In this document: positions 3,904 through 58,448 of the stretch, piece by piece
How the letters are laid out: each line of letters opens with the position of its first letter
Numbering within the stretch: position 1 is the stretch's first letter
Source of the DNA: Alphaproteobacteria bacterium
GTDB lineage: Bacteria; Pseudomonadota; Alphaproteobacteria; UBA7887
DNA length: 64,000 nucleotides
Assembly: GCA_965216755.1 (NCBI GenBank)
Contig: CBDCGL010000011.1
Coordinates: forward strand, 4,160,001-4,224,000
Direction of reading: 5' to 3'
The notes under the pieces: model-generated
Seen by the model: the letters and a program-made list of their open reading frames with translations, nothing else
The model's database searches: none
Told to the model about the DNA's origin: nothing
Position numbers and translations under genes: made by a program

Positions 3904-5148
3904 TCAAGAGCCGGATCGCGACAAACGATCCATGCGGTCGCGTAAAGGTGGGTGGGCCAAAAGCAACGCCGCATACAGTGGGTCGGGTGTTAGGCTGGTT
4001 AGATTATTGCGATGCAGTTTCACCAGGGCACGCGACAGCGTGGCGCCTGTTCCGAGGCCTGAGGCAAACGCGTCGGCGTCGTATTCGAATGCCCGTCGGA
4101 TATGGGCGTCTATCGGTCTGGTGATTTGCTTGCCGGCAATGTATAGCGCGACAATCGCGATCAGCATCGCATGCGCGCTCGGTGGGCTCAGCGCCAATCC
4201 GGACAAGAACCAGGGATTTATGGAAAGTAACATAACGAATAGTAATAAAATGAGTCGTGCCGCCGCCGTGATCGCGAAATAGGTGATGACATGACGATGG
4301 CGGAGATGGCCAAGTTCATGTGCGACCACGGCTTCCACCTCTGACGCCGTCAATAGTGTCGTCAAGGTATCATTGAGAACAATCTGGCGGTGTGTGCCAA
4401 TGCCCTGGACCCGTGCATTGGCGTGAAGCGAGCGCCCGGACGTCTCGGCGACCAGAACCGTGTCGACGGGGAGTCCGGCGCGTTTGGCGAGATCAAACAG
4501 ACGGCCCGACAATGTCGAATCCATCGGTGTGTAACGCGAGTCGAGCCACGGCGAAATCGCGATCGGATGCAGCCACAACAAAGCAAGGTCACAGATCGTC
4601 CACGCACCCCAAAGCATGATCCACCAATGCGGCCCGCTGGCGTTGATGATCGCTATCGCGACCGCCGCCCCGCACAGATTCAGTGTTCCGCGCACCGTCG
4701 CGCGTTTCAGACGGTCGGCGGCAAATGAGCCCAGGGTCATTCGGTTGAGGCCGAAAGCTTGGCCAATGCCAAATGTTTCCCACATGTGAAGCGGCAGGCG
4801 GAGGAGATAGGTCGCCACCATCATGGTACCGATCACGGCCAATCCCTTGACCAGCGGCGTCAGCGCCAATTCCGACCACGCACCGTCGACCGCGCGAAAG
4901 CCACCGCCCACGGTCCACGCGAGCAGCAAACACGTGTCCAAGACAGCGGTCGCGTGCGTGAGGTGTTGGCGCGCCAGCGTGTATTGTGCGCCCCGTTGGT
5001 GTGCCGTGAGCTGGATGTTTTCACGGAGGATTGCCGGGAGGCGTGCGTGATTGGCGCGCACATGGGCGCTGTTGCGCGCGCCCAACCAGGTGAACGCGCC
5101 ATAGCTGAGGCAAACAATGCCGACGAAGAGGATCCCGAAATTGTTCAT
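3904..5148 (-). CDS. M48 (Ste24/CaaX-like) membrane zinc metallopeptidase
   Basis: HELGH zinc motif, AFEYDAD, HPPLRDR, multiple TM segments. Confidence 0.88.
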   Translation of the reverse strand: MNNFGILFVGIVCLSYGAFTWLGARNSAHVRANHARLPAILRENIQLTAHQRGAQYTLARQHLTHATAVLDTCLLLAWTVGGGFRAVDGAWSELALTPLVKGLAVIGTMMVATYLLRLPLHMWETFGIGQAFGLNRMTLGSFAADRLKRATVRGTLNLCGAAVAIAIINASGPHWWIMLWGAWTICDLALLWLHPIAISPWLDSRYTPMDSTLSGRLFDLAKRAGLPVDTVLVAETSGRSLHANARVQGIGTHRQIVLNDTLTTLLTASEVEAVVAHELGHLRHRHVITYFAITAAARLILLLFVMLLSINPWFLSGLALSPPSAHAMLIAIVALYIAGKQITRPIDAHIRRAFEYDADAFASGLGTGATLSRALVKLHRNNLTSLTPDPLYAALLLAHPPLRDRMDRLSRSGS

Positions 5149-5433
5149 CGTCGCAGCGGCGTCCTTCGGCGACTGAGACAGCGCGAATCCGCCCCAGTCT
5201 ATATCCGTTCTAATTATAAGGGCTTTGAATATTGGTCATTGATTGCATCTGCTACAGCAAATTAGTAACAAACGAAACTAGTTCGCAGAGCTTGAGGACC
5301 GGATTTGCCCGGGCGGGATGGCGTCAACCGCTGTGTCCAGATGGGTCGTTCACACTCATGACGGCACTCGCCACCTCAAGCTCAAGCCGAGCACGGTCCC
5401 GCACCTTATCGCGGGAGATAGAGGAGATAAGCC

Positions 5434-5508
5434 ATGAAATGGGTTGATCCTGCCTATTGTGATTTGCGGTTGGGCTTTGAAGTCACCGCATATGTCTACG
5501 TTCGTTAG
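5434..5508 (+). CDS. pqqA: PQQ precursor peptide PqqA (MKWVDPAYCDLRLGFEVTAYVYVR)
   Basis: Translated by hand; below the ORF-track cutoff. RBS GAGGAG at 5421-5426, conserved W-x-x-P...GFE-x-x-x-Y motif, immediately upstream of pqqD/pqqE. Confidence 0.95.
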   Translation: MKWVDPAYCDLRLGFEVTAYVYVR

Positions 5509-5511
5509 TAG

Positions 5512-5550
5512 GCAAATTAGGGGGGACGTGTCATGCGTCCCCCCGTTTGC
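5512..5550 (+). terminator. Stem-loop after pqqA (partial terminator or mRNA stabiliser)
   Basis: GGGGGGACG (5520-5528) pairs with CGTCCCCCC (5536-5544); outer GCAAA/TTTGC. Confidence 0.7.
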
Positions 5551-5586
5551 TTAACGTGGTGCATGATGGTGATGAAGGCGGCGCGC

Positions 5587-5871
5587 ATGGCTGATCCTGA
5601 CAAGCTGACACGGCTCGATCACATCGAGATTGATCCCATGTATCTGTTTCGATGGGAAGAATCGCAACAAGCACACGTGCTGCTTTATCCCGAAGGTATC
5701 GTCAAACTCAATCAAACCGCCGGGGAGATCCTGAAGCGCTGTACCGGCCAGAAGTCGGTTGGTGAAATCATCGACGAGTTGGAAGAGGTATTCGTCGATG
5801 GCGATGTTGCCTCTGGCGTACTGAAGTTCTTGGAGGCGTCCAATGCCAAAGGCTGGATCAGACGCAAGTGA
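5587..5871 (+). CDS. pqqD: PqqD peptide chaperone (RiPP recognition element)
   Basis: FRWEESQQAHVLLYPEGIVKLNQTAGEIL, typical of PqqD; start moved to the ATG at 5587. Confidence 0.92.
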   Translation: MADPDKLTRLDHIEIDPMYLFRWEESQQAHVLLYPEGIVKLNQTAGEILKRCTGQKSVGEIIDELEEVFVDGDVASGVLKFLEASNAKGWIRRK

Positions 5872-7000
5872 AGTTGGTCTCGACGGGCTCGGTAAACCGC
5901 TTTGGTTATGCCTTGAGCTGACCTATCGGTGCCCGCTGAAATGCCCGTGGTGCAACAACCCGGTCGATTTTGACGAGTACCGCGACGAACTTGACACCGA
6001 TGAGTGGAAGCGCGTGTTGCGCGAAGGGCGGGCATTGGGGTCGCTGCAACTGGGCTTTACCGGCGGTGAACCCGCCATGCGCGATGATCTGGAGGAACTG
6101 GTCGCGGAAGCGGAGTCTCTAGGGTATTACACCAATCTCATCACTTCGGGTATCGGGCTCAGCGCCGAACGGCTACAGGACCTGAAGAACTGCGGCCTGC
6201 ATCAAATCCAACTCAGTCTGCAATCGTCGCGGCGGGATATCACCGACGCCTTGGTCGGCGCGCGCGCCTTTGACAAGAAAATAGAGATCGCCGAGGCGAT
6301 CAAGGCGGCGGGGTTCCCGATGGTCCTCAACGTTCCGGTATGCCGCCAGAATATTGGCGACACCGCGGACATTTTGACGTTGGCCGAGCGCATCGGCGTC
6401 GACTATCTCGAATTTGCCAATATTCAGTATTACAACTGGGCGCTGCTCAATCGGAGTGAACTGTTGCCGAACCGCGCGGAACTGGAATCGGCGGAAGCTG
6501 CCGTGAACGAAGCCCGCGATCGGCTTGGAGATCGGATGACGATCTACTTCGTTATCCCCGACTACTATGATGGCCGCCCAAAGGCGTGCATGAACGGGTG
6601 GGGCAGCATTCATTTGACGATTGCACCGGACGGCACCGCCCTGCCATGCCAAGAAGCACGGGTCATTCCGGGCATGAATTACCCGTCGGTTCGCGACCAG
6701 GGCTTGGCTGAGATTTGGCACGATTCTTTGGCATTCAACAGATTTCGCGGCGACGCGTGGATGACCGAACCATGTCGCGGATGCAATGAAAAGGCCAAGG
6801 ATTTTGGCGGTTGTCGGTGCCAGGCATTCCTGTTAACGGGCGACCCGGCGAACACCGATCCGGCGTGCGCCAAGTCGCCGCAACATGACTTGATCGAGGC
6901 TGCCATTGCCGATGCCGCGAAGCCACGACCGTTTCGCCTGCCGTTGGTCCGGCGCCATGCGAGCGCGGTGACCACGGCATTTGCTGGCAATGCAGTATGA
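5843..7000 (+). CDS. pqqE: PqqE radical SAM/SPASM peptide cyclase
   Basis: ELTYRCPLKCPWC, FTGGEP, KACMNGWG, PCRGC...DFGGCRCQA...DPAC. Confidence 0.93.
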   Translation: MPKAGSDASEVGLDGLGKPLWLCLELTYRCPLKCPWCNNPVDFDEYRDELDTDEWKRVLREGRALGSLQLGFTGGEPAMRDDLEELVAEAESLGYYTNLITSGIGLSAERLQDLKNCGLHQIQLSLQSSRRDITDALVGARAFDKKIEIAEAIKAAGFPMVLNVPVCRQNIGDTADILTLAERIGVDYLEFANIQYYNWALLNRSELLPNRAELESAEAAVNEARDRLGDRMTIYFVIPDYYDGRPKACMNGWGSIHLTIAPDGTALPCQEARVIPGMNYPSVRDQGLAEIWHDSLAFNRFRGDAWMTEPCRGCNEKAKDFGGCRCQAFLLTGDPANTDPACAKSPQHDLIEAAIADAAKPRPFRLPLVRRHASAVTTAFAGNAV

Positions 7001-7104
7001 AGACGCCCCTGGACACGCCCGCTGGCACGATCATCTCCGGCGTCGCCTTAACTGTGATTCTAATCATGCTGGTGCGGCTGATCGTGCAAGTCACGGGTGG
7101 ATGA
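6997..7104 (+). CDS. 35-aa single-TM micro-protein (MKTPLDTPAGTIISGVALTVILIMLVRLIVQVTGG)
   Basis: Translated by hand; ATGA coupling to the pqqE stop; one hydrophobic helix. Confidence 0.6.
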   Translation: MKTPLDTPAGTIISGVALTVILIMLVRLIVQVTGG

Positions 7105-7142
7105 GGTATCGCTGATTCCAGGCTCAAAAGGATGACGTAGGC

Positions 7143-7652
7143 GTGGAAACGGCCATCATTGACTCCGTTTTGCGTTGGATACATTTCCTCGCAGGGATTA
7201 TCTGGATTGGCCACAACTACGCCGGCATGGTGTTAGTGCCGCGATTTCGCCCCTACGATCCGGCTCAAGACGCGGCCGAAGTGTTGACATCGTCTTACAT
7301 GGGGCGGCAATCACGTGAACACGCCGTTTTTCGCTACAGCGCCATCGTCACTTGGGGCGCAGGGGTCGCGCTGCTGTGGCAACAAGAGCGACTGGTCGAC
7401 GCGCTCATGCTCAGGGCTTATGACGCGCCCATCGGCGTTGGCACTTGGATCGGAACGATTATGTTGCTCAATCTGTGGCTAGTGATGTGGCCACATCAAA
7501 AGAAGGTGCTCGGGTTTGTGCCGGCGCCGGTCGAAGAACGCGTTCGTTGCTCGCGTGTGACTTTTCTCTCCGCACGAATAAACAGTATGCTATCGATTCC
7601 CTTGTTGTTTTTGATGGCAGCCAGCGCACACGCGCCGAATTTGTTTAGCTGA
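7143..7652 (+). CDS. Urate hydroxylase PuuD N-terminal-like membrane protein (no cytochrome c domain)
   Basis: LRWIHFLAGIIWIG, IMLLNLWLVMWPHQKKVLG, SARINSMLSIP; no CxxCH. Confidence 0.72.
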   Translation: METAIIDSVLRWIHFLAGIIWIGHNYAGMVLVPRFRPYDPAQDAAEVLTSSYMGRQSREHAVFRYSAIVTWGAGVALLWQQERLVDALMLRAYDAPIGVGTWIGTIMLLNLWLVMWPHQKKVLGFVPAPVEERVRCSRVTFLSARINSMLSIPLLFLMAASAHAPNLFS

Positions 7653-7657
7653 CAGCG

Positions 7658-8824
7658 ATGATGGAAGATGCAAAGACGCGGCTGACACAACGAAACTGCG
7701 CCCACGATATGTCCGCGTCAATGGGTCCAAAGCGGCCACACGGCGTGTCGTCAGTCTATAACTTCGCGGCTGGCCCGACGATGATGCCGCATCAGGTGCT
7801 GGCGCGGGCACGCGACGAACTACTGAATTGGCACGGCACCGGTATGTCGGTTTGGGAATTGCCGTTCACCGGAGCGCCGTTTCGCCACCTGGCGGCCGTG
7901 GCACGGCAGCGCCTTCGTGAACTTCTCGATGTGCCTGAGAATTATCGCATTCTGTTTATGCATGGTGGTGCGTCGGCACAATTTTCGTTGGTGCCATTGA
8001 ACTTGGCGCGCGACGCACCGGTCGACTATGTCGAAACCGGTCATTGGGCGCGGAAGGCGATTCGTGAAGGCCGACGTTATGCCCATGTCAACGTTGTCGC
8101 GAGCAACGCTGGCCAAGGGTTCACGTGCATGCCTGCGCCTGAGACTTGGCAACTGACAAAGGGTGCGGCTTATTGCCACGTCACCACCAACGAAACGGCA
8201 AATGGCCTCCAGTTTCATCACACGCTTGATGCCGGCAGCACGCCCCTGGTGGCTGATGCGACGTCCGATTTCTTGGCGCGACCACTCGATGTTGGGAAAT
8301 TCGGGCTTGTCTACGCCGGGGCGCAAAAGAATATCGGCCCCGCCGGGCTGACCATTGTCATCGTCCATCGCGACCTGCTTGGAGCGGCACGTGCCGAAAC
8401 ACCGACAGTGCTCAATTATCAAGTTCAGGCCGACAGCGATTGTATGGTCAATACGCCGTTGACATACGCGATATATTTGGCGGGACTGGTGTTTGCGTGG
8501 CTGGCTGAGCAAGGCGGTGTAACGGCGATGGCGACGATCAATCGTCGGAAGAGTGCGCGCCTCTATGCGGCTATCGACAGCACGGCTTTCTACCAGTGCC
8601 CCAATGCCCCGGCGGACCGATCGCACATGAATGTTTGCTTCGGGCTGGCCGACCAACAGCTGGAAGGCCGGTTTTTGGCCGAAGCCGAGACAGAGGGGTT
8701 GTGCAATCTAAAGGGCCATACCGCGGTCGGTGGTATCCGCGCCAGCCTCTACAACGCGATGCCGGAAGCGGGCGTCAAGGCGCTGATGGATTTTATGGTC
8801 GAGTTCGAACGCCGGTACGGTTGA
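7658..8824 (+). CDS. serC: Phosphoserine aminotransferase (E. coli-type, PLP class V)
   Basis: YNFAAGP, GGASAQF, YAGAQKNIGPAG (PLP Lys), NTP, KGHTAVGGIRASLYNA; true start may lie slightly downstream. Confidence 0.88.
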   Translation: MMEDAKTRLTQRNCAHDMSASMGPKRPHGVSSVYNFAAGPTMMPHQVLARARDELLNWHGTGMSVWELPFTGAPFRHLAAVARQRLRELLDVPENYRILFMHGGASAQFSLVPLNLARDAPVDYVETGHWARKAIREGRRYAHVNVVASNAGQGFTCMPAPETWQLTKGAAYCHVTTNETANGLQFHHTLDAGSTPLVADATSDFLARPLDVGKFGLVYAGAQKNIGPAGLTIVIVHRDLLGAARAETPTVLNYQVQADSDCMVNTPLTYAIYLAGLVFAWLAEQGGVTAMATINRRKSARLYAAIDSTAFYQCPNAPADRSHMNVCFGLADQQLEGRFLAEAETEGLCNLKGHTAVGGIRASLYNAMPEAGVKALMDFMVEFERRYG

Positions 8825-8941
8825 CGGCCGCGGCCTGATATCTACGGCCCGCCTCCGCCTCATTAGCTACAACGAATTTAGGGAATTGTAATCTTCTCGA
8901 TGTATGCCGGTTCCTGGCCCTAAAAGCATCAGGAGCTGGCT

Positions 8942-9877
8942 GTGATTACTGAACGTATTGACCACATCACCCGCATTCCCCAGGACTATAAGTCAGCTTG
9001 TCCGCCGTGCCCCAAAAGCGTCAAGATCGAGCTAACAGCTCGTTGTGACTTCAAGTGTTTCTTTTGTGCCACCGGCGCCAAACTGCGAAAAACCGGCGAT
9101 ATGGATTGGGACTTGCTGCGCCGATTGCTGACGGAAATGCGTGACGCCGGCGTCGAAGAGATCGGCTTGTTCTACCTCGGTGAGTCGTTTCTCTACAGCA
9201 AGCTTCCCGACGCGATCGCTTACGCGCGCAAGCTTGGCTACCCATACATCTTCCTGACGACCAACGGCAGGCTCGCAAAACCCGAGCGGGTCCGCGCCTG
9301 TATGGCGGCCGGCCTCGACAGCCTCAAATTTTCGTTTAATTGGGCGGACCAGGCCCAATGCAAAGACATCACCCGGGTCGACGCCTTCGAGACCGTTGTT
9401 GCCAACATCAAAGCTGCGCGAGAGGTCCGCGACGACGTTGAAAAGGCGAGCGGCCATCGCTGCGGTCTGTACGCCTCGTCGATCCAATATGACGGCGCGC
9501 AACAAGAGCGCATGGCGCGGGCCGTGCAAGAGATCGAGCCTTACGTCGATGAACATTATTGGTTGCCGCTCTACGGCCAAGCTGGATTGACGGCGGGCGC
9601 CAACGGCACGACTCCCGTGGCCGGCAATGTCGGTCGGGTCGGTGCCTTGCGTGATCCGCTGCCGTGTTGGGCGGTGTTCACCGAAGGTCACATCACCTTT
9701 GACGGCCATTTGTCAGCATGTTGTTTCGACCATGATGGGCGGTTCAACATGGGCGATCTCAACACCATGTCTTTTATGGAGGCGTGGCATAGCGGAACAT
9801 TCCAAGCGCTCCGAGAGGCCAATTTGGCGCAGGATGTCACCGGCACGCCATGCGAGCAGTGCATCGCCTACGGCTAA
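8942..9877 (+). CDS. Radical SAM protein with SPASM/Twitch-type C-terminal domain, function unknown
   Basis: CDFKCFFC; LPCW...DGHLSACCFD...PCEQC; RBS AGGAG before the GTG start. Confidence 0.88.
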   Translation: MITERIDHITRIPQDYKSACPPCPKSVKIELTARCDFKCFFCATGAKLRKTGDMDWDLLRRLLTEMRDAGVEEIGLFYLGESFLYSKLPDAIAYARKLGYPYIFLTTNGRLAKPERVRACMAAGLDSLKFSFNWADQAQCKDITRVDAFETVVANIKAAREVRDDVEKASGHRCGLYASSIQYDGAQQERMARAVQEIEPYVDEHYWLPLYGQAGLTAGANGTTPVAGNVGRVGALRDPLPCWAVFTEGHITFDGHLSACCFDHDGRFNMGDLNTMSFMEAWHSGTFQALREANLAQDVTGTPCEQCIAYG

Positions 9878-10070
9878 TCACCGTATAGCGTAAGACGCGC
9901 ACTATAAAGCGCGCTAAACCACATGTTGTGTCGCCGCACGGCGACGCGTACTCTTTCGCCCGCAGTTGAACTGTCGGCGCTGCGCCAAGGTGCCGCATCC
10001 GGCGGGTGGGCCGGGCCACCGCAGGCATGTGCGCATGCTGTCGTTGCCAGCGTTGTCTACGCGCGGAGCA

Positions 10071-10592
10071 ATGGTCATGACGGCACCGGAAAAGTATTCC
10101 AAAGGTGTGCGGTTTTTGCATTGGCTGATGGCAGCCGTCCTGGTTGGTTCGGTCTATACCGGCTGGCAGTTGGAAGAGCCGGGCAACCGGGTGACGTCGC
10201 TTCATTTCGGGCTCGGGATTTCGATCGCGTTGCTCATCCTATTGCGTATTTGGGCGCGCCTCGGTTCGACCGTACCGCCGTTCCCTGATGGGCTCGCGGC
10301 ATGGGAGGCGCGGGTGGCGCACGCCGCACATATGGCCCTCTATGGCACCTTGGTGATGATGCCTGCGCTTGGTTTTTTGGCAGCGACCACGCGTGCGGAG
10401 GGCGCCACCCTTTGGGGGCTACCGTTGCCGTCCGTACTGGGGCGCGATAAGGTGCTCCACGAGGCCATCGCTGGGGCCCATGGCTTGGTTGCCAACATTT
10501 TGATTTTGGTCACGCTGCTGCATATTGCCGGTGCCCTAAAGCATCGCCTGTTTGATAAACCGGAGAACAACGTGCTGCCGCGGATTCTTTAA
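10071..10592 (+). CDS. Cytochrome b561 (YceJ/CybB-like)
   Basis: LHWLMA, LHFGLG, AHMALY, LLHIAGALKH haem-ligand histidines. Confidence 0.88.
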   Translation: MVMTAPEKYSKGVRFLHWLMAAVLVGSVYTGWQLEEPGNRVTSLHFGLGISIALLILLRIWARLGSTVPPFPDGLAAWEARVAHAAHMALYGTLVMMPALGFLAATTRAEGATLWGLPLPSVLGRDKVLHEAIAGAHGLVANILILVTLLHIAGALKHRLFDKPENNVLPRIL

Positions 10593-56633: not shown

Positions 56634-58448
56634 ATGATTGGGCGTAAGACACGGGGCATCGCCTACGGTCTCGCAGGCGCGAGCTTGCTGACCTTGGCCA
56701 TGGCTCTGCCCGCGACCGCACAAACGGTCACGACAGACGACGCTTTGTTGAATGCCGATGCGAACCCGGCGAACTGGGTGACCGTCGCGCAGAATTACAA
56801 ATCGCATCGTTATTCGGCTCTCGATGAAATCAACAAGGATAACGTTGGTGACTTGAAACTGGCCTATGCGCTGTCACTTGGTGGATCCGACGGCGGCGGT
56901 TTCTGGCAATATGGCAATATCGAAGGCACGCCGCTGGTCGAAGACGGCATTATGTATATGCCCAACGGCTGGAGCGAGCTGTTCAAGATCGACTTGCGTA
57001 AAGCCGGTCAAGGCCCGGACATGGTCGAATGGATCTTTGATCCGGCGGTCGATAAGGACTGGGCGGGCAACGTGACCTGCTGCGCGATCAACAATCGCGG
57101 TGTCGGCTTATATCAAGACGGCGTCATCATCAGCACTCTGGATGGCCGGATGATCCGCGTTTCCAAGGACACCGGTGAGGCTGTTTGGGAAACGCAATTG
57201 GCAGATCCGGCGATTGCCGAAACCGTCACGGTCGCCCCGCTGATCGTCAAGAATATGGGCATTACTGGTGTTTCGGGCGCTGAATACGGCATTCGTGGTT
57301 GGATCGCCGCCGTTGATTTGGACTCCGGCAAAGAAAAGTGGCGCCGTTACACGGTACCTGGGCCGGGCGAAGCTGGCTTTGACACCTGGAAAGACGACTA
57401 CGACGCCTGGATGACCGGCGGTGGTTCATCCTGGCAGACCGGTTCGTACGATCCAGATCTCAATTTGGTCTATTGGGGCGTCGGCAATCCGGGCCCCGAC
57501 TGGGACAATGACTATCGTCCCGGCGATAACCTCTACACCAGCGGCATGATTGCGGTTAACGCCGACACCGGTGAGATCGAGTTCCACTTCCAGTACACGC
57601 CCAACGATCCGTATGACTATGACGGCATCAATGAGCAGGTTCTGGTTGACGCGGTTGTTGGCGGTGAAGAGCGTAAAGCGATCATCCACGCCGACCGTAA
57701 TGGCTTCTTCTATGCCATCGATCGCAGTGACGGCAAATTTATCTACGGTCTGCCGTTCGTGAAAGAGGTCAACTGGACCCGTGGTCTGGACAAGGTCACC
57801 GGCTTGCCGCTCGACTATGACGCCAGCCGCGACGTTCAGGTTTACATCGCCGAACGGACGCCGAATCGGACCAACAAGTCGGCCACGTTCTGCCCGAACC
57901 TGATGGGTGGCAAGAACTGGATGCCGATTTCCTACAGTCCGAAGACCAACATGGCCTATGTGCCGACCATTGAAAGTTGCATCACGGTCAATAACGAGGA
58001 AGAAGTTCCGGGTCCGGACGGCTCCTACGTGTTGCGTGAGTGGTTCTCGGGCGGCATGCCGGATGTGACCACTGCCCAAGGTTCCGATGGCAGTGATCTG
58101 GCCGGTAGCCTGACCGCGATCGATATCGCCAATGGCCGTATCGTGCGCAAAGTCGACACCCGTTATCCGCTGATGGCCGGCGTTCTGTCGACCGGTGGTG
58201 GTTTGGTGTTTGTCGCACAGCACGAAGGCAAATTCTGCGCCTTTGACGACGAGTCACTCGATGAACTGTGGTGCTTCCACACCAATACGCTGATGGACGC
58301 GCCGACCATGAGCTTCGGCGTTGACGGCAAGCAATATATCGCCGTTGCGTCCGGCGGCTGGGGCACCGTTCCGACTTACTTTGCCCCGTCGGTTCCGGGT
58401 CTTGAGAAGGTCAAGCCTGGCAACATCCTGTGGGTATTCGCGCTCTAA
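56634..58448 (+). CDS. Periplasmic PQQ-dependent dehydrogenase, methanol/ethanol family, probably lanthanide-binding
   Basis: Signal peptide, vicinal CC (TCCAINNRG), SGAEYG, GNPGP, DPYDYDG, GGKNW; RBS GGGAGGA. Confidence 0.92.
   Translation: MIGRKTRGIAYGLAGASLLTLAMALPATAQTVTTDDALLNADANPANWVTVAQNYKSHRYSALDEINKDNVGDLKLAYALSLGGSDGGGFWQYGNIEGTPLVEDGIMYMPNGWSELFKIDLRKAGQGPDMVEWIFDPAVDKDWAGNVTCCAINNRGVGLYQDGVIISTLDGRMIRVSKDTGEAVWETQLADPAIAETVTVAPLIVKNMGITGVSGAEYGIRGWIAAVDLDSGKEKWRRYTVPGPGEAGFDTWKDDYDAWMTGGGSSWQTGSYDPDLNLVYWGVGNPGPDWDNDYRPGDNLYTSGMIAVNADTGEIEFHFQYTPNDPYDYDGINEQVLVDAVVGGEERKAIIHADRNGFFYAIDRSDGKFIYGLPFVKEVNWTRGLDKVTGLPLDYDASRDVQVYIAERTPNRTNKSATFCPNLMGGKNWMPISYSPKTNMAYVPTIESCITVNNEEEVPGPDGSYVLREWFSGGMPDVTTAQGSDGSDLAGSLTAIDIANGRIVRKVDTRYPLMAGVLSTGGGLVFVAQHEGKFCAFDDESLDELWCFHTNTLMDAPTMSFGVDGKQYIAVASGGWGTVPTYFAPSVPGLEKVKPGNILWVFAL

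Follow-up and report, generated by a model that had tools for sequence, protein, structure and literature searches.

A PyrD-less second PQQ-type cassette with a linked Ste24-type M48 protease in Alphaproteobacteria

A stretch of 64,000 nucleotides from an alphaproteobacterial genome of the UBA7887 lineage (GenBank GCA_965216755.1, contig CBDCGL010000011.1, positions 4,160,001 to 4,224,000), which we refer to as the window, encodes a conserved second pyrroloquinoline quinone (PQQ)-type cassette. Its core consists of a precursor peptide gene (pqqA*), pqqD, pqqE, a micro-open reading frame (micro-ORF), a short DUF989 membrane protein and a SerC-like pyridoxal phosphate (PLP) enzyme, and neither pqqB nor pqqC is found within the 64 kb. 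This core matches a cluster that is already in print as a hypothesis, and the window's version is a distinct alphaproteobacterial subtype that lacks the PyrD-like gene of that cluster and carries a Ste24-type M48 protease. Our leading proposal, to which we give about an even chance, is that the second cassette finishes PQQ without the O2-dependent PqqB and PqqC, with the M48 protease releasing the crosslinked product in this subtype.

In the standard pathway, PQQ is completed by the O2-requiring enzymes PqqB and PqqC, and two sources state that its synthesis needs O2 (PMC11102522, PMC12423496), yet denitrifiers use PQQ enzymes when growing on methanol under anoxia. Of the candidates for the O2-free route that this implies, the cassette is the foremost. 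From the M48 subtype, we learn that the PyrD-like gene is not universal, that a specific protease is indicated for a poorly defined cleavage step, that the SerC-like pocket is changed and that the micro-ORF likely belongs with the membrane protein. If the proposal is true, it would mean O2-independent quinone-cofactor chemistry and a route to anaerobic PQQ production.

Results

Organization of the locus

All ORFs named by the first-pass annotation of the window are present, with pqqA, pqqD and pqqE each above its family cut-off. Its claim that the gap between pqqA and pqqD is too short for pqqB or pqqC also stands: the spacer measures exactly 78 bp, and it contains a hairpin. The features, in window coordinates, are as follows.

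3904-5148, minus strand: Ste24/CAAX-type M48 zinc protease (PF16491 and PF01435 matches), divergent to pqqA*
5434-5508, plus strand: pqqA* precursor peptide, 24 aa, with E16-x3-Y20 (TIGR02107 score 30.6, cut-off 20)
5520-5544, plus strand: putative terminator/attenuator-like hairpin 3' of pqqA*, with an 11-pair stem and T-rich tail
5587-5871, plus strand: pqqD peptide chaperone with RRE domain (TIGR03859 score 88.9, cut-off 46)
5843-7000, plus strand: pqqE radical SAM/SPASM crosslinking enzyme of the second-cassette clade (TIGR02109 score 488, cut-off 381), overlapping pqqD
6997-7104, plus strand: micro-ORF, a 35-aa hydrophobic single-helix membrane peptide and predicted DUF989 partner (from conservation, a fusion and a complex model)
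7143-7652, plus strand: short DUF989/Urate_ox_N (PuuD-like) four-helix membrane protein, 169 aa, a candidate membrane oxidase (PF06181)
7658-8824, plus strand: SerC-fold PLP enzyme with remodelled substrate pocket, passing the NCBIfam SerC cut-offs
8942-9877, plus strand: second radical SAM (SPASM/Twitch) enzyme, cassette-linked only within the host's family
9927-9948, plus strand: terminator-like hairpin separating cytochrome b561 from the second radical SAM gene
10071-10592, plus strand: cytochrome b561, a bystander (PF01292; ATG start probably at 10071)

Conservation of the six-gene core

Conservation was assessed in a metagenome set comprising the best 80 of 164 loci that encode relatives of the cassette PqqE (63-73% identity). 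Genomes are labelled G and loci L, each with a number, and counts given as "with room" refer to loci with enough sequence to show the gene. In this set, the clade PqqE is followed by a PuuD-like gene in 70/70 loci with room, and the corresponding count for a SerC-like gene is 60/60, so the linkage of SerC to this PqqE clade, which the first-pass annotation had singled out for a neighbourhood comparison, is borne out. The micro-ORF was detected in 69/74 loci, and pqqA* lies at most 600 bp upstream in 59/75. At no metagenome locus were pqqB or pqqC seen between pqqA* and pqqD, and pqqBC occurs nearby in 4/80 loci. The C-terminal 11 residues of PqqA* are identical in 64/67 related peptides and unlike the C-termini of the host's canonical PqqAs. 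In a quick tree (60 rows, a subset of loci), the cassette PqqEs form their own branch relative to the canonical alpha and gamma/beta PqqEs (Shimodaira-Hasegawa-like approximate likelihood ratio test, SH-aLRT, 94/99), within which the M48-type PqqEs are not resolved as one clade. With the micro-ORF, PuuD-like and SerC-like genes near-constant, the PqqA* end nearly fixed and the PqqEs on their own branch, the core is a real six-gene unit.

Beyond the metagenome set, a phylum-wide sample yielded one more cassette of the PyrD type (G451) among 3 inspected of 8 matches; SerC-like matches in G099 and G240 have no cassette genes within the 14-15 kb around them. Two variations on the precursor and crosslinking genes were also observed. 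Cassettes of genus g3 have a tandem second PqqE inserted upstream of the DUF989 gene, directly after pqqE, which is strongly diverged (50% identity, with a long branch) but retains CxxxCxxC (L036:10726-11781(-), L038:11405-12478(-) and L037:1730-2785(+)), and G344 has a degenerate extra pqqA (L226:2270-2341), in which the crosslinking Tyr is replaced, upstream of an intact pqqA.

Linkage of the M48 protease to the cassette

Within an even set of 401 genomes of the class, clade PqqE occurs in 8 and a Ste24-type M48 in 12, with all 8 among the 12. M48 is found in 8/8 clade-PqqE genomes versus 4/393 others, and it adjoins the cassette in each of the 8. The first-pass annotation's suspicion that M48 is co-conserved with this PqqE clade is thus upheld for the alphaproteobacterial subtype. 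The gene is divergent upstream in the host genome, G002, G009, G016 (the last outside the 401-genome sample) and L127, and it follows serC on the same strand in G344, G089, G339 and G235; in G039, serC and M48 are separated by what is left of a broken PyrD-like gene. Together, the M48-type cassettes span four families and two M48 positions, although kin among them are not independent.

The M48 protein has an HExxH motif, a Glu as the third zinc ligand and an N-terminal membrane domain, and it matches ZMPSTE24/Ste24p structures. H277-E278-x-x-H281, E355, N244 and H399 are invariant in 10 cassette M48 copies. When compared to the Ste24/ZMPSTE24 CAAX proteases, with which it shares the PF16491+PF01435 architecture and the zinc ligands, the window protein differs in being bacterial, in having at most 40% identity to any homologue among the matches listed and in being tied to a peptide-cofactor cassette. 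Judging from this active site and linkage, both of which are observed, the M48 protein is likely a PqqA*-processing protease, with PqqA* as its predicted substrate. No paper linking PqqA to Ste24/M48 was found in a literature search whose reach excluded subscription journals and bioRxiv supplements. In another subgroup, of PyrD-type cassettes, a proline-iminopeptidase-like gene is present in or by 10/80 loci and is internal to the cassette in 3 of them, as would be expected if peptidases have been recruited more than once. Such a hydrolase is encoded between pqqD and pqqE at L187:8823-9875, L191:3696-4748 and L193:321-1295.

Relation to the published cluster

Li et al. 2025 describe "pqqAED-puuD-serC-pyrD" as a second cluster in denitrifiers, such as Hyphomicrobium denitrificans (Hden_0548-0553), and the paper (PMC12423496, section 2.9) reports co-regulation with denitrification genes in Hyphomicrobium and offers a role in O2-free PQQ synthesis as speculation. 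The window shares with this cluster a second pqqA/D/E beside a canonical pqqABCDE, a host with denitrification genes, and four-helix PuuD-like and SerC-like genes directly downstream. Unlike the published cluster, it has a Ste24-type M48 instead of a PyrD-like gene, no FNR box and, in this family only, a second radical SAM gene downstream. Section 2.9 makes no mention of M48, the micro-ORF or an altered SerC pocket. The same literature search found no experimental test of the published cluster. With the canonical pqqABCDE(F/G) operon, the window locus has in common a PqqA with E-x3-Y, PqqD and PqqE above their cut-offs, and a hairpin 3' of pqqA, whereas it has no pqqB, pqqC or M16 (PqqF/G) protease, and its PqqE is 45% identical to the host's canonical PqqE.

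A PyrD-like gene directly follows serC in 57/58 metagenome loci with at least 900 bp past serC, and the single locus without it (L127) is the metagenome locus that carries M48. In the PyrD-like copies (6 displayed of 20 aligned), the two loops that in dihydroorotate dehydrogenase bind the substrate and carry the catalytic serine are missing. The host genome's only strong PyrD-like profile match is the canonical PyrD, with substrate loops intact; in the other genomes, the gene was looked for in the fetched loci. In the G039 cassette (L041:6200-12100), besides the broken PyrD-like remnant, an extra pqqD is frameshifted and the micro-ORF is present in two copies, with an acyl-CoA dehydrogenase between them; a PQQ dehydrogenase and a canonical pqqABCDE are encoded on the same contig.

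A remodelled pocket in the SerC-like enzyme

The cassette SerC-like proteins share with SerC, the phosphoserine aminotransferase (PSAT), the fold, the PLP lysine and the carboxylate-binding arginine. K224 (the PLP lysine), D200 and W130 are kept in 67/67 cassette sequences and the carboxylate-binding R361 in 66/67. In contrast to SerC/PSAT, three of the four phosphate-binding residues are replaced in the window protein, with F70, T71 and T355 at the positions of the phosphate-binding His, Arg and Arg. Across the cassette proteins, the S-H-R motif has become P-F-T (F in 67/67) and the second H-R pair has become H-x, the arginine remaining in 7/67. The replaced positions correspond to phosphate anchors of PSAT (human His44, Arg45 and Arg336; PMC10031235). 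A separate housekeeping serC_2 is present in 5/5 genomes tested, including the host. Given these replacements and the separate serC_2, the SerC-like protein probably uses PLP to act on an amino acid that carries no phosphate, as far as its sequence predicts, and so the SerC label of the first-pass annotation holds for the fold, while phosphoserine aminotransferase activity is unlikely.

The micro-ORF and the short DUF989 protein

The gene labelled PuuD-like by the first-pass annotation belongs to the Urate_ox_N family, as does the urate oxidase PuuD through its DUF989/Urate_ox_N membrane domain; it is, however, a short DUF989 form and not a full PuuD. Whereas PuuD has an eight-helix DUF989 domain fused to cytochrome c, the window protein has four helices, no cytochrome c and no purine-degradation context. 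Its model consists of four long helices (predicted local distance difference test, pLDDT, 88.9), and the sequence has no CXXCH. In a fold search, the model matched generic four-helix bundles only, and its alignment with cytochrome b561 (Z 9.9, root-mean-square deviation 3.4, 143 aligned) scores no higher than those with unrelated bundles of this kind. According to Doniselli et al. 2015 (PMC4562309), urate oxidation by full-length PuuD apparently proceeds via cytochrome c and not by making H2O2, and short DUF989 forms occur in other gene contexts with no assigned role. H14, H24, E59, H60, R64, M107, R133, R138, R145 and M158 are invariant in 71 sequences, and a comparison with one generic short DUF989 paralogue shows other residues there at H24, Y26, R58-E59-H60 and R133/R138. 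That cassette-invariant residues are changed in the generic paralogue suggests a cassette-specific polar pocket.

G009 encodes the micro-ORF and the DUF989 protein as a single in-frame fusion of 207 aa (L038:10776-11399(-)). A model of the complex of the two proteins scores 0.72, with the best control at 0.00, contacts agreeing 100% between runs and a partner pLDDT of at least 84; the mark used for such models is reached by 116/157 solved pairs and 2/215 mismatched pairs. The micro-ORF peptide is thus, from the modelling, a likely partner of the DUF989 membrane protein.

The host genome and the oxygen link

The host genome (99.8% complete) contains a complete alpha-type pqqABCDE operon at C11:2,119,840-2,123,117, ~2 Mb from the cassette, which holds its only pqqB and pqqC copies. 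The first-pass annotation had named as evidence against its reading a pqqBC locus elsewhere in the genome combined with flanking genes that show no conserved linkage to pqqADE; the whole-genome check finds the former, at C11:2.12 Mb, but not the latter, with the micro-ORF, PuuD-like and SerC-like genes near-constant and M48 linked in the subtype. Since pqqC is present elsewhere in 11/11 cassette genomes tested, the cassette is an addition to the canonical pathway. A lone third pqqA of alpha type lies at C11:2,790,300, distant from both pqq loci.

The host encodes 8 PQQ dehydrogenases above the family cut-off, as well as divergent quinoproteins scoring below it. One of the 8, a PQQ-dependent alcohol-dehydrogenase-family gene (TIGR03075 above cut-off), lies inside the window at 56634-58448. 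The host also encodes NarG, NapA and two cd1-type nitrite reductases (C11:4726642-4728480 and C11:2290046-2291953), with no nirK match in the genome. With these denitrification enzymes and PQQ dehydrogenases, the host has a use for PQQ without O2. Cytochrome d1-domain genes occur in 7/10 cassette genomes of the host's subtype or family, and nirK in one further. In G009 and G039, the cassette has PQQ dehydrogenase genes no more than ~5 kb away, and no dedicated client enzyme conserved beside the cassette was found.

An FNR-type box, defined as at most one mismatch to the consensus, is found upstream of pqqA* in 31/70 clade regions, versus 0.6 expected in 70 shuffled regions, and ubiU/ubiV lie within 12/34 loci of at least 15 kb. 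Taken over the whole clade, these figures tie the cassette strongly to low oxygen. All of the boxes are in other clade members (31/64 loci), and how the M48 subtype stands in this respect is taken up below.

Discussion

A proposed pathway without PqqB and PqqC

In the proposed pathway, PqqD would present PqqA* to PqqE for crosslinking of Glu16 and Tyr20, a step for which the PqqE chemistry is established and the motifs are seen here. The M48 protease, whose active site and linkage we observe, would then trim the crosslinked peptide. The SerC-fold PLP enzyme may hold the freed Glu-Tyr unit via its alpha-carboxylate and amino group and promote imine formation or ring closure. Finally, the micro-ORF peptide and the short DUF989 protein would perform the oxidations, with electrons passing to the respiratory chain instead of O2; PuuD, in which a cofactor-free oxidase (uricase) is replaced by a membrane enzyme passing electrons to a cytochrome, offers a precedent by analogy. 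The weakest link of the proposal is the insertion of the two quinone oxygens. A fuller version, which we consider rather unlikely as a whole, is a seven-gene minimal pathway to PQQ or a sister quinone cofactor that needs no O2, PqqB, PqqC or flavin enzyme and consists of a Ste24-type maturase, SerC ring closure and a two-piece DUF989 oxidase. If true, it would give the first functions for bacterial Ste24 homologues and short DUF989 proteins.

Several observations weigh against a PQQ-completing cassette with a dedicated M48 protease. We infer every reaction after the crosslink from gene content, motifs and linkage, and plain transamination by the PLP enzyme would remove a nitrogen that is kept in PQQ. 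The PyrD-like gene is absent from the window locus by profile search, so that step is either dispensable or done by another enzyme. The micro-ORF and short DUF989 protein also form a second pair outside any pqq context in the host (L225, C11:3710575-3711226), and non-pqq matches to this pair occur in most genomes of the host's family. With respect to oxygen, FNR-type boxes are found at 0/10 M48-type loci, and the window's best site has 4 mismatches, although the host's own two nirS-type genes have 1-mismatch boxes. The host genome has no U32/UbiUV genes; UbiUV is reported as needed for denitrification in Pseudomonas aeruginosa, and the host has two cd1-type nitrite reductases without them. Expression in Methylophaga nitratireducenticrescens is likewise not anoxia-specific. 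In mean transcripts per million (TPM) that we computed for oxic / oxic with nitrate / anoxic cultures from published transcriptomes (PMC11526790), pqqE of the serC-linked cassette has 998 / 232 / 93 in strain JAM1 (canonical pqqE, 203 / 170 / 99) and 298 / 135 / 242 in GP59 (canonical, 187 / 287 / 100), such that in GP59 anoxia shifts expression towards the cassette relative to the canonical operon.

The origin of the M48 gene adds to these points. A queG-M48 arrangement without the cassette is found in G240 and G097, and a queG-cassette-M48 arrangement in G344 and G089, so M48 may have hitch-hiked. In an M48 tree (33 rows, using 20 of 119 homologues), the cassette M48s share one branch (99/95) with three alphaproteobacterial M48s that lack a cassette and with one unplaced homologue. 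The three non-cassette copies nest among the cassette M48s, and a clade of cassette M48s excluding them has a p value of 0.137 in the approximately unbiased test (p-AU). Based on the queG-M48 loci and this joint branch, M48 may have been a resident gene that was captured once and then retained through rearrangement.

Alternative explanations

Read differently, the cassette may be an auxiliary module that supplies, trims and salvages crosslinked Glu-Tyr, which PqqB and PqqC of the canonical operon would finish whenever O2 is to some extent available, giving more PQQ for many quinoproteins. The presence of pqqC in all 11 cassette genomes tested, pqqBC near the cassette in 4/80 loci, the highest JAM1 cassette transcription in oxic cultures, the missing FNR box in the window and the 8 PQQ dehydrogenases of the host are all consistent with such a supply role. 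It leaves unexplained, however, why the remodelled PLP enzyme is retained at every locus with room, together with a membrane protein whose invariant residues are specific to the cassette, and why the other subtype has FNR boxes and ubiUV neighbours, and we regard it as rather unlikely. Alternatively, the product could be another Glu-Tyr-derived quinone cofactor or small molecule, with the PLP enzyme removing or swapping the amino group and the membrane protein oxidising the product. A nearly invariant PqqA* C-terminus (64/67) unlike that of the host's canonical PqqAs, a distinct PqqE clade, an aminotransferase for which PQQ chemistry offers no clear role, the host's divergent quinoproteins that score under the family cut-off, and the presence in relatives of an additional PqqE, itself divergent, or of a second radical SAM enzyme all point in this direction, whereas the E-x3-Y motif, PqqD and PqqE proteins that pass PQQ-family cut-offs, PQQ dehydrogenase genes close to the cassette in G009 and G039 and the lack of a conserved client enzyme beside it speak for PQQ itself. 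On balance, a different product seems doubtful to us.

The M48-type cassette could also be a degenerating PyrD-type cassette, with M48 as a passenger from a queG locus. The broken PyrD-like gene and frameshifted extra pqqD of G039, the degenerate extra pqqA of G344, the long branches of the M48s of the window and g3, and the loss of the FNR box are what such decay would leave. Against this, all core ORFs are intact, catalytic residues are kept across four families, and M48 is still attached after its move from a downstream to a divergent upstream position. We regard decay as highly improbable.

Neighbouring genes and minor observations

Two genes that the first-pass annotation had listed beside pqqADE fall outside the conserved unit. 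Cytochrome b561 is found in 0/160 related loci and is separated from the upstream genes by a terminator-like hairpin, and it is rejected as a cassette member. A tailoring role for the second radical SAM enzyme finds little backing, and we reject it as a core tailoring enzyme: its gene was found in 0/52 metagenome cassette loci with room, it was not found in G009, and it occurs in G004 and G006, both without clade PqqE. The gene follows serC in the host genome, G002, G013 and G016. Given its adjacency to the cassette in this one family, the enzyme might locally stand in for the PyrD-like step that has been lost.

A recent transfer of the cassette into the host genome is rejected, as its GC content and third-position GC content (GC3) match those of the genome. 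An Rfam scan of the locus gave no credible match, and a sigma-70 promoter scan gave a result no better than chance.

Relatives of the second radical SAM protein are numerous, at identities of 70-80%. In a set of 80 genome loci of its family, 3 adjoin the cassette, with the same layout as the family genomes already counted, while 29/80 adjoin a Crp/Fnr regulator and some adjoin nar/mog genes. No named function was obtained from NCBIfam, PHROGs or the ESM Atlas, where one look-alike cluster is 91% viral.

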